A stretch of DNA of 64,000 nt from positions 3,520,001-3,584,000 of the forward strand of contig CM000151.3 of assembly GCA_000004695.1 (NCBI GenBank), in the 5' to 3' direction. The DNA comes from Dictyostelium discoideum (lineage: Eukaryota). Both the position numbers and the translations under genes were made by a program. Below the pieces are notes generated by a model that made no database searches, had not been told where the DNA came from, and saw nothing but the letters and a program-made list of their open reading frames with translations. This document shows positions 20,442-23,400 of this stretch, piece by piece; position 1 is the stretch's first letter, and each line of letters opens with the position of its first letter.

Positions 20442-23400
20442 TTAATTATAAAATTTAATTAAATAATCAAATGATGATGAATATTCTTTTAATTGTTTAT
20501 ACAAATGATAAATTAAATTTGGAATTTTTGATTCAAAATAAAATAAAATTGAATCTTGATTTGTTAAAATATTATTAATGAATTGTAGTTCAATTGTTGG
20601 TTGTTTTTGTTGTTGCTGTTGTTGTTGAATTAATCTTTTAATATCTTTATGATGTACAATTGTATTTCTAATAAATCTAATTAAATCTTTAATTTGATCA
20701 TATTGATATTGACTTGTTGAACCAATTGATAGATTATTAATATCAATTAATTTATCCCATGTTTGTTTTAAAAATGGTTCTGATTTTGGTTCAATATAAT
20801 CACTTGATAATGAAATCACAAATAAATAATTTAAAGATTTATTAAATTTATTACCACCACCACCACCACCACTATTATTTGATTCTTTACAAATGTTTAA
20901 AGCTGCATCAATGAATTGTATTTTCTTTTCTACATTCCAAAATAATGGATGATTTAAAACATTTTCAATTGTTGGTCTTTTAGATTCATCATTTGATATC
21001 ATTGATTTAATTAAATCACAAGCTAATAAATTATGACCCAATAATTCTAAATTAACTTTATTTAACATTATATTATAAATTCTAAATAATTTATCATTAC
21101 CAAATGGATGTTGACCATTTGTAAATAAATAAAATAAAATACAACCCAATGAAAATATATCAACTGATTTTGTCATTCTTTTACTTTGTAATACTTCAAC
21201 TGGATGATAACCACCTTGACCTGTTGGTACATTTGTTGTAAATGAATATGATGATTCAACTTCCATTTTACTTAATCCAAGATCTGATATAATGAATGAA
21301 TTATTTGAATTATTATTTGAATTATTATTTGAATTATTATTACTTTTAATTTTATTATTACTTTTATTATTATTATTATTATTTTTATTAGTTGATAATG
21401 TTAAAATATTACGTGGATTTAAATCATTATGAACTATATCATGTGAATGAAGGAATTGAACACCATTAATAATATCTTTTGCAAGTTCATTTAATGATTT
21501 ACCTGATGAATTTATGAATTCATTTAATTTACCATTTTCAACTAAATATTGTAATGATACATCACATAATGTTAAACCTAAATAAACAAAGTGTTTATCC
21601 TCTTCTTTATCAATATATCTAATCATATTTGAACAATTTTTATTTGTTAATGTTATTAATGCTTCAACTTCTTTATTTATTAGTGGATTGAATGCTTTTT
21701 GCATTTGTTTAATTGCAACTGGTATTTTATCACTCCATATACCTTTAAATACTAATGTACCATTTGAACCTCTACCTAATATATTTGATTCATTTCTATT
21801 AAATTTAAATTTACCAATTGATACAAAATCTTCATCTTCAACTATTATAAATTCACTTTTACTTTTAATTTCTTTATTATTTTCTTCTTTTTCTTTTTCT
21901 ACTTCTTCTTTTTTATTTTTAATTTCTTTATTATTTTCTTCTTCTTTTTTAATTTCTATTTTTAAATTTTTAATTTGGTTTTCTAGTTGTTGTTTTTGTT
22001 GTGGTTTTTCTTGTTTTTGCTGTTGTTTTTCTTGTTTTTGCTGTTGTTTTTCTTGTTTTTGCTGTTGTTGCTGTTTTTGATGTTTTTGTTTTTGTTGTGA
22101 TTGTTGTTGTGATTGTTGTTGTGGTTGTTGTGATTGTTGTTGTTGTTGTTGTGGTGGTGATTGTTGTTGTGATTTTTGTTGTGATTGTTGTTGTGATTTT
22201 TGTTGTGATTGTTGTGATTGTTGTTGTGATTGTTGTTGTGGTGATTGTTGTTGTTGTTGTTGTTGTTGAGATTGTTGTTGTTGTTGTTGTTGTTGTTGTT
22301 GTTGTTGTTGTTGTTGTTGTTGTTGTTGTTGTTGTTGTTGTTGTTGTTGTTGTTGTTGTTGTTGTTGTTGTTGAGTTTGTATTTTTAGATTATGTTGTTG
22401 TAGATCTTGTGGTTGTTGATAATTTTGTTTTTTTTCTTTTTCTTGTTGTTTATCTTGTTGAAGAACTTTTTGTTTTTTTTCATTTTCTAATTTCTTAATT
22501 TTCTTTTTTTGTTTTGTTTTTAATTTTTTTTGTTTTTCTTCTTTTTCCAATTCATTTAAAAAATCATCATTTTTCATTCTTGATATTCCTTCACTTATTT
22601 TAGACAAATCTACGGATCTGGTTGGTAAAACACGAAAAGGATCAGAAGGATTCTGATAATCTTCTTGATAAACGAAATACAATGACTCGTACTTATCTTT
22701 ATTTATAAAAATTGGAGCTTTCAAACGATCATTTATCACACCAAAAAGTAAATCTATTCTATATGGTTCATTTGGTGATTTTTCTTTTTTATGATTATAT
22801 AAACCCTCTAATAACTTTAGACATCCTGAATACTGTTTTTCAATTTCATTCTGACATTTTAAATAATTTACAATACAACCAAATTGAGATATGCTAATTG
22901 AACCTTTATAAAGTTCTCTATTTAATAATAAATAATTTAGGTATACATTAGCAATGTTGCAATTCATATCATATGAAATATTTGAAATAAATGCAAATAT
23001 TAATATTGGAATTAATGTTGATCTAGTTAATGTTGGAACTGTAAATTTACGACTTTTAAACAATATACTAAAATATTTTGATAAAAGAAGGCCTCTAATT
23101 ATTTCAAAATCTGTCATTAACTCTGAAATATCAAATACATAATTTGGATTACCAATATTTGTACCCGTTAAATTTTCAATAATATATGAAGAAAAAAATC
23201 TATAACCAGCAAAGCTAAATACCAATGATATTAATGAACCTTTTCTATATTCAACCAATTTCTCTAATTCATCATCATCATTTTTATTATTATTATTATT
23301 ATTATTATTATTATTATTATTATTATTATTATTATTATTATTATTATTATTATTATTATTATTATTATTATTATTATTATTATTATTATTATTATTATTA

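Follow-up and report, generated by a model that had tools for sequence, protein, structure and literature searches.

IRE1 and ribonuclease L (RNase L) are the two textbook ribonucleases (RNases) coupled to a kinase domain, and phosphotransfer versus nucleotide-driven dimerisation is a central question for both. The same question is raised by a gene in the 64,000-nucleotide stretch of Dictyostelium discoideum DNA analysed here, referred to below as the window (contig CM000151.3, positions 3,520,001-3,584,000 of the forward strand, assembly GCA_000004695.1). This gene is irlF, and its product is related to the stress sensor IRE1 but soluble, a protein of ~1400 amino acids (aa) in which an IRE1-derived kinase domain is followed by a KEN RNase domain. 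The nucleotide-binding and RNase residues are intact, and the catalytic loop of the kinase is fixed in a non-canonical form, HNDLNPRN. Does such a domain still transfer phosphate, or does it only hold the nucleotide? With moderate confidence, we favour the interpretation that IrlF would be a cytosolic RNase whose kinase module serves as a nucleotide-binding dimerisation scaffold with impaired phosphotransfer.

The window contains only ~20% guanine and cytosine (GC), and the open reading frames (ORFs) read from it contain long poly-Asn and poly-Gln tracts, as is typical of Dictyostelium. The initial annotation, made from the letters of the DNA, dealt with positions 20442-21900. This interval corresponds to aa ~890-1375, the C-terminal third of the main ORF, which holds the kinase and KEN domains. 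Its proposal of a cytosolic irl-type paralogue proved correct, as the window translation matches the printed IrlF sequence DDB0229362 over the N-terminal ~400 aa, except at an exon junction (Table S2, PMC1420674). An exact-sequence look-up of the 1375-aa ORF in a protein collection gave no match; the annotated product is spliced. The protein P0018 (KAM9971852.1), from another D. discoideum strain, shares 97% identity with IrlF over kinase and KEN.

The Dictyostelium kinome contains an enlarged IRE family with seven members (Goldberg 2006, PMC1420674). All of them carry RNase(L) domains, and a signal peptide plus transmembrane (TM) segment is found only in IreA (PMC1420674). The Table S2 entries of IrlA, IrlB, IrlE and IrlF list VAIK or VAVK, HNDLNPRN and DLG, with the predicted activity given as 'a', and in the kinase-domain alignment of the same paper IrlC and IrlD, too, have HNDLNPRN and DLG (PMC1420674). 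The gene, the Irl family, its architecture, the absence of a membrane anchor and the HNDLNPRN motif have therefore been known since 2006. A pseudokinase interpretation of IrlF, to which its sequence may point, has no precedent in the published work, unlike the gene and the motif.

The IRE1/RNase L-type combination of kinase and KEN, as first read from the sequence, is borne out by two Pfam families and by alignment to yeast IRE1. PF00069 (Pkinase) covers aa 928-1210 with an expectation value (E) of 9.1e-32 (110.9 bits, cut-off 31.7), and PF06479 matches the isolated C-terminal 172 aa with E 1.1e-11 (45.4 bits, cut-off 23.3). In a phmmer search of Protein Data Bank (PDB) sequences, the best matches were all IRE1 (E 3e-46 to 3e-41), and the top one, yeast IRE1 3fbv (E 3e-46), gave a single alignment spanning both domains. 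Given these E-values, the match to IRE1 is far beyond chance. PF06479 was not reported when the whole 1375-aa protein was scanned. The KEN domain of IrlF is thus a case in which a whole-protein Pfam scan misses a real domain in a Dictyostelium protein rich in low complexity.

Compared with the canonical HRDLKPxN, the loop of IrlF has Asn in place of R165 and K168 (numbering of protein kinase A, PKA) and gains an Arg at D+4, and it keeps D166 and N171. Alignment to yeast HRDLKPQN places no Lys at the position in question, so that the two substitutions described earlier are real. The equivalents of PKA K72, D166 and D184 are K954, D1049 and D1096, all of which are present. The yeast and clade alignments likewise agree with the earlier statement that the protein still has VAIK, the αC Glu and the catalytic residues of KEN: Y1288, R1301, N1302 and H1306 pair with Y1043, R1056, N1057 and H1061 of yeast Ire1 in the 3fbv alignment. 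Among the sequences aligned here, the Asn/Ser-rich insert between the catalytic loop and DLG is confined to IrlF and P0018, the copy from a close strain; in the 2006 kinome alignment, IrlB carries a comparable Asn-rich insert (PMC1420674). The DLG itself had been counted as a departure from DFG. However, among ~150 canonical IRE1 representatives DMG is the commonest form, and DLG, DVG and DYG are also seen. We therefore reject DLG as a sign of inactivity; such variants are shared by IrlF and many IRE1s.

How widely the altered loop is conserved was judged from relatives collected mainly by an exhaustive homology search over 1.84 billion representative sequences. This search returned P0018, ~20 Irl-type representatives and, as the best matches after the Irl clade, canonical IRE1s. 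A word-index search with the kinase-KEN query returned only Acytostelium proteins and canonical IRE1s; its candidate list had probably been flooded by poly-Asn words. All four dictyostelid groups are represented among the Irl-type proteins, whose source species are Cavenderia fasciculata, Acytostelium subglobosum, Heterostelium album, Tieghemostelium lacteum, Polysphondylium violaceum, D. purpureum, D. firmibasis and D. discoideum. Twenty dictyostelid Irl proteins have an identical HNDLNPRN, to which the alignment adds a 21st (P0002). The sole dictyostelid deviation, HNDLNPSN, belongs to one Acytostelium protein whose KEN site is degraded too. In an alignment of 24 Irl sequences, most of which are 24-37% identical to IrlF (exceptions are P0018 with 91% and one short Acytostelium protein with 49%), H1047, N1048, D1049, P1052, N1054 and D1096 are invariant, and N1051, R1053, K954, E967, the glycine loop, Y1288, R1301, N1302 and H1306 are at least 90% conserved.

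Since HNDLNPRN is essentially invariant across the dictyostelid Irl proteins, this alignment argues that the motif is a selected state and not the product of decay, the substituted residues being as strongly selected as the classical ones. We conclude that the Irl module fixed both the Lys-to-Asn and the Arg-to-Asn changes before the dictyostelid groups split. In the IRE1 family as a whole, the catalytic-loop Lys may have been lost several separate times. Other Lys-less representatives outside the dictyostelid Irl clade are, with Thr at D+2, P0064 (HNDVTPHN), P0088 (HNDITPQN) and P0039 (HNDITPRN), the last from the non-dictyostelid Clastostelium recurvatum. Two more from outside the clade, P0015 and P0098, read HRDLRPxN, with Arg at D+2.

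The invariance or near invariance of the nucleotide-binding residues (glycine loop, K954, E967, N1054 and D1096) across the 24 Irl sequences supports a nucleotide-bound module. In the mechanism that we propose, the kinase domain would bind ATP or ADP, and Ser/Thr phosphotransfer would be poor or absent because the Lys that contacts the γ-phosphate and the Arg of HRD are both replaced by Asn. Back-to-back dimerisation of the nucleotide-loaded module would then bring the active site of KEN together, as happens in IRE1 and RNase L. The input would come from the cytosolic N-terminal domain, through binding of a ligand or partner, or from clustering mediated by the linker, rather than from a luminal sensor of the endoplasmic reticulum (ER). 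Cleavage of cytosolic RNA by the KEN domain would be the output.

Two precedents make this scaffold mechanism plausible. RNase L binds ATP yet is 'incompetent for phospho-transfer', and it undergoes ligand-induced back-to-back dimerisation (PMC7547215). The yeast mutant Ire1(D797N,K799N), which shares the loop Lys-to-Asn change with IrlF, has no detectable kinase activity, but its RNase still responds to nucleotide in vitro and it still splices HAC1 in vivo (Rubio et al. 2011, PMC3082176). A nucleotide-activated RNase can thus be built on an IRE1 module that does not transfer phosphate. Unlike IrlF, which keeps D1049, the yeast mutant lacks the catalytic Asp, and it is membrane-anchored and gated by ER stress.

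The analogy with RNase L drawn in the initial annotation stands up to closer comparison. Human RNase L (PDB 4oau/4oav, 4o1o) has the same soluble layout of a kinase-like domain and KEN. Its catalytic loop in 4oau/4oav reads HQDLQPQN, so that the same two basic residues have become amides, and the equivalents of K72, D166, N171 and D184 are kept. An ankyrin-type N-terminal region is possibly common to both, although the repeats of IrlF are degenerate at best. In contrast, DFD and a shortened activation segment that lacks P+1 and APE are found in RNase L, whereas IrlF has DLG, a complete segment and the Arg at D+4. RNase L was not among the best 60 PDB matches of IrlF, the weakest of which has E 3e-10. 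As the sequence of IrlF resembles IRE1 much more closely than RNase L, its RNase L-like features are probably the outcome of parallel evolution. We know of no 2′,5′-oligoadenylate (2-5A) system in Dictyostelium, and a literature search for a link between Dictyostelium and 2-5A signalling found none.

Several points weigh against impaired phosphotransfer, and some of them also speak for the main alternative, that IrlF is an atypical but active kinase in which the Arg at D+4 replaces the missing Lys. With the Thr201 equivalent lost, such a kinase may be dual-specificity or directed to Tyr, and IRE1-like trans-autophosphorylation could switch the RNase on or off. Receptor tyrosine kinases (HRDLAARN) have a compensating Arg at D+4, and non-RD kinases and kinases with DLG or DMG are commonly active; DMG, as noted, dominates in the canonical IRE1s. 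IrlF keeps K72, D166, N171, D184, the glycine loop and the αC Glu, and by standard criteria the loss of one among K72, D166 and D184 marks a pseudokinase; retention of the three is no proof of activity, however, since RNase L keeps their equivalents as well. The invariant or nearly invariant loop residues, maintained despite an overall identity of ~30%, and the fixed Arg at D+4 look more like remodelling of the site than like decay. The activation segment, unlike that of RNase L, has its full length with conserved Ser, Thr and Tyr (SSYSF). Across the Irl clade there is conservation of this segment as well as of the P+1 loop, the APE-type Glu, D220 and R280; a pure scaffold has no obvious need of the last four. 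The kinome paper, the source of the sole published prediction, lists IrlF as 'active' and singles out the non-IreA members, which lack Ser/Thr at PKA position 201, as kinases that might accept tyrosine (PMC1420674). In addition, the yeast precedent alters D797 besides K799, so that the effect of the Lys is not isolated. The initial annotation had also raised the possibility of identity with an irl gene of demonstrated kinase activity. The gene is indeed a known irl gene, but our literature search found no publication dealing with the function of Irl proteins, their kinase activity or their status as pseudokinases, and an IreA review and a 2026 note on IreA do not mention the Irl paralogues.

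The residue at PKA position 201 also differs between canonical IRE1s and most of the HNDLNPRN proteins. Canonical IRE1s combine a HRD[LIV]KPxN loop with Ser or Thr here, and IrlF combines HNDLNPRN with Gln1118. Ser or Thr was found wherever the position was readable in IRE1 representatives of the HRD..K..N type, two HCD variants among the Lys-containing proteins carry Asp, and 17 of the 20 HNDLNPRN proteins have Gln or His. In these alignments, the residue at position 201 co-varies with the catalytic-loop Lys, being Ser or Thr with Lys and mostly Gln or His in Irl.

Three observations stand against an active kinase. The Asn at D+2 is the very substitution that was chosen to help kill the kinase of yeast Ire1 (PMC3082176), and RNase L with the same pair of losses is inactive (PMC7547215). 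Furthermore, a few Lys-bearing IRE1s have an Arg at D+4 too (HRDLKPRN, HCDIKPRN), and hence it is not necessarily compensatory. We regard an active IrlF kinase as possible but less likely than the scaffold. The possible pseudokinase of the initial annotation is an inference about a protein with K72, D166 and D184 in place, an Arg at D+4, a full activation segment and a published prediction of activity.

The second alternative is that the window copy, which is of the AX4 type, is a decaying or non-functional duplicate broken by a microsatellite and a frameshift, so that its motif would be meaningless. The gene, marked 'IrlF, C2dup', lies within the chromosome-2 duplication of the laboratory strain, and a duplicate of IrlF is DDB0217365 (Goldberg 2006, PMC1420674). 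An upstream exon 1, which encodes the start of published IrlF and of P0018, sits in a different frame from the main ORF. Its frame continues through the (TTA)35 microsatellite of the intervening gap as poly-Leu and then meets a stop, and its sole in-phase GT donor, GTTAAC at 24787, is unusual. However, the 4.1-kb ORF is intact in DNA of 20% GC, the kinase-KEN region is 97% identical to the protein of another strain, the motif is invariant across Dictyostelia, the gap is removed by splicing in the 2006 gene model, and translation could alternatively start from the in-frame ATG at 24569. A decaying copy is therefore very unlikely. In sequence and motifs (VAIK, HNDLNPRN, DLG), RNase L-type C-terminus and lack of an anchor, the window gene is the same as the IrlF of the published Irl family. 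At the level of the gene model, splicing of the donor at 24787 to an acceptor at 24480 in 2006 omitted ~31 codons (ending LIVLIFNS). These codons are conserved in P0018, which is colinear across the gap between exons 1 and 2 (FKNHYRECEILMNDL), and an alternative acceptor at 24579 (atatatag|T) would retain them.

It is most improbable that IrlF phosphorylates a small molecule or an RNA end in a reaction coupled to the RNase: the HND...N loop is like the Brenner type (choline, aminoglycoside and Kdo kinases), HNDxxxxN being the form found in choline kinases, and several Irl members give weak Pfam matches, at the catalytic loop to Kdo/WaaP (E down to 9e-5, some reaching the 21.3-bit cut-off) and, below cut-off, to RIO1, but these are expected cross-matches among kinase-like families, and in all other respects the domain is that of a typical eukaryotic protein kinase nearest to IRE1, with an activation segment and the αF-αI core specific to protein kinases.

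If the kinase module of IrlF is a nucleotide-bound scaffold, its input would come from the region ahead of it. The initial annotation was right that no obvious luminal sensor is present, and there is no signal peptide or TM segment: Kyte-Doolittle hydropathy over 19 residues peaks at 1.56, the N-terminus is not hydrophobic, and Pfam scans gave no luminal-domain match, in line with the published statement that the non-IreA members are not apparently membrane bound (PMC1420674). Identity as a canonical ER IRE1 is rejected on the same grounds. With yeast Ire1p, human IRE1α and Dictyostelium IreA, IrlF shares the nucleotide-binding residues and the KEN Tyr, Arg, Asn and His, but instead of a signal peptide, luminal domain and TM segment it has a cytosolic N-terminal domain of ~660 aa of its own.

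This N-terminus had been described as disordered and N/Q-rich, but there is more to it than that. The low-complexity region with poly-Gln and K/E-rich stretches is a linker between the N-terminal domain and the kinase. At the end of the linker, just before the kinase, lies VGKFKF, whose G919 is invariant and whose K920 hardly varies across the Irl alignment. The region before the linker is a conserved, mostly helical domain, interrupted by poly-Asn tracts at aa 245-281 and 388-428. For these 660 aa, Pfam gave no family and only low-complexity noise, BLAST of the N-terminal region gave no similarity to paralogues, and a word-index search with a query free of low complexity returned nothing. Profile comparison was more sensitive. 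In hhalign, IrlF and P0018 matched eight other Irl N-termini with a probability of 98% (E 1.4e-13, 285 columns), and this group of eight matched an Acytostelium/Heterostelium group with 98.7%. As Irl identity is 44-64% in kinase-KEN versus ~20% in the N-terminal domain, these matches argue for a fast-diverging domain common to all Irl proteins ahead of a well-conserved effector. An AlphaFold2 (AF2) model of aa 1-244 built from 17 sequences showed three helix pairs with a predicted local distance difference test (pLDDT) of 76-94 and is usable only for aa ~126-240; the model of aa 1-660 from a two-sequence alignment, with pLDDT 30, is not interpretable. A disordered N-terminus without a domain is rejected by the hhalign match and the helix pairs.

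The helix pairs may be ankyrin-like. A profile of six paralogue N-termini searched against PDB sequences matched only ankyrins (ankyrin-1/2, E 3.8e-9), as did a 17-sequence profile anchored on IrlF (best E 2.6e-5), where both values are sums of many weak repeat matches with single-repeat E of at least 0.27. Pfam Ank does not match IrlF itself, and hhalign against a hand-made ankyrin/DARPin template was not significant even for the paralogue profile that matches PDB ankyrins, and is thus uninformative. The ankyrin assignment of the IrlF repeats is tentative. What can safely be said is that the IrlF N-terminus has a conserved helical domain that is a candidate sensor, and it could be the sensor that the protein otherwise lacks. 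In two proteins of the HNDLNPRN clade, Ank families exceed the Pfam thresholds: P0025 (aa 301-323, Ank_3 30.4 bits) and P0035 (A. subglobosum GAM20432.1, aa 67-150, Ank_4 25.0 and Ank_3 23.9 bits). Ankyrin repeats upstream of kinase-KEN in these proteins reproduce the domain order of RNase L outside animals.

Table. Features of irlF and of the rest of the window (positions in the window; strand + or -)
Feature	Positions	Strand	Basis or remark
irlF main ORF, large exon	20442-24569	-	One ORF of 1375 aa in the ORF listing; stop codon 20442-20444
irlF upstream exon 1	24788-24951	-	Ends PTNK + 2 nt; peptide = start of published IrlF and of P0018
(TTA)35 microsatellite (AAT on + strand)	24626-24730	-	In the exon 1-exon 2 gap of irlF
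N-terminal conserved, mostly helical domain, ORF aa 1-660	22590-24569	-	hhalign to other Irl N-termini
Ankyrin-like helix-pair repeats (tentative), ORF aa ~126-222	23904-24194	-	Profile alignment and AF2
Low-complexity linker, aa 661-924	21798-22589	-	K/E-rich, flanking long poly-Gln/QQS; ends VGKFKF
IRE1-type protein kinase domain, aa 925-1210	20940-21797	-	Pfam and yeast IRE1 alignment
Glycine loop GRGSNG	21759-21776	-	Clade alignment
VAIK, aa 951-954 (K954 = PKA K72)	21708-21719	-	Pairs with yeast VAVK
αC Glu E967	21669-21671	-	Clade alignment
Catalytic loop HNDLNPRN, aa 1047-1054	21408-21431	-	Pairs with yeast HRDLKPQN
Asn/Ser-rich insert, aa 1058-1091, between catalytic loop and DLG	21297-21398	-	Alignments
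DLG, aa 1096-1098 (DFG equivalent, metal-binding Asp kept)	21276-21284	-	Pairs with yeast DFG
P+1/APE-like GQGGYHPVE, aa 1117-1125	21195-21221	-	Q1118 = PKA-T201 position; E1125 = APE Glu
KEN/Ribonuc_2-5A domain, aa 1211-1375, directly C-terminal to kinase	20445-20939	-	PF06479
KEN catalytic cluster	20652-20708	-	Yeast pairwise and clade alignments
Two ORFs, 237 and 228 aa, just downstream of irlF	18013-19488	+	No Pfam match; GC ~28-30%
tRNA-Phe gene	19698-19771	-	~200 bp from the 237- and 228-aa ORFs
Discoidin-like ORF, 253 aa	1045-1806	+	F5/8 type C and H-type lectin
Discoidin-like ORF, 253 aa	36412-37173	+	F5/8 type C and H-type lectin
Third 253-aa ORF	38586-39347		
Endonuclease V	26790-27587	+	
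Cytochrome P450 fragment	61510-62490	+	
FNIP-repeat protein	62853-63923	-	
tRNA-Leu	4835-4914	+	
tRNA-Glu	13565-13638	-	

Among the other features of the window, the two short ORFs near the transfer RNA (tRNA) gene for Phe may be a fragment of a tRNA-targeted retroelement. The two discoidin-like ORFs are 96% identical to each other, and the third ORF of the same length is unrelated to them in sequence. The presence of the discoidin-like pair near irlF, like the low GC, agrees with the identification of the gene.

To what was published in 2006, the present analysis adds the clade-wide invariance of HNDLNPRN, the parallel with RNase L, the co-variation at position 201, the correction concerning DLG and the conserved, possibly ankyrin-like N-terminal domain. 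It also bears on how the family grew. A. subglobosum has at least nine Irl-type genes, seven on one 1.34-Mb contig (SAMD00019534_033320, _033330, _033420, _033540, _033560, _033570 and _036070) and two on another (_096190 and _096510). That they lie mostly close together on one contig suggests a tandem, lineage-specific expansion. In the 1920-aa protein P0024 (T. lacteum KYR01146.1), a Spt16 N-lobe/peptidase M24 region precedes an Irl-type kinase-KEN; here two gene models have probably been merged, and a true fusion is the less likely reading. The family as a whole combines an N-terminus that varies with an effector that is conserved, and it has expanded independently in different lineages, a pattern that in other lineages is tied to defence-type RNases (HEPN survey, PMC3710099). 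A defence role for the Irl proteins, drawn by analogy from this pattern, would be speculation. We consider it unlikely that the Irl proteins represent an amoebozoan version of RNase L with an independent origin from IRE1: cytosolic, signal-gated endoribonucleases with a fast-evolving ankyrin-like sensor, a nucleotide-bound kinase frozen in the HNDLNPRN state and a conserved KEN domain, expanded lineage by lineage, which might serve defence or stress responses at the RNA level.

The Irl clade is a natural experiment on the IRE1-derived module, in which the loop changes were fixed, the ER sensor was lost and the genes were multiplied. If the kinase is active, IrlF would be an unusual kinase of the Ser/Thr fold with a catalytic loop like that of tyrosine kinases. 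If it is dead, the RNase L design would have originated a second time, independently, in an organism that is genetically tractable.

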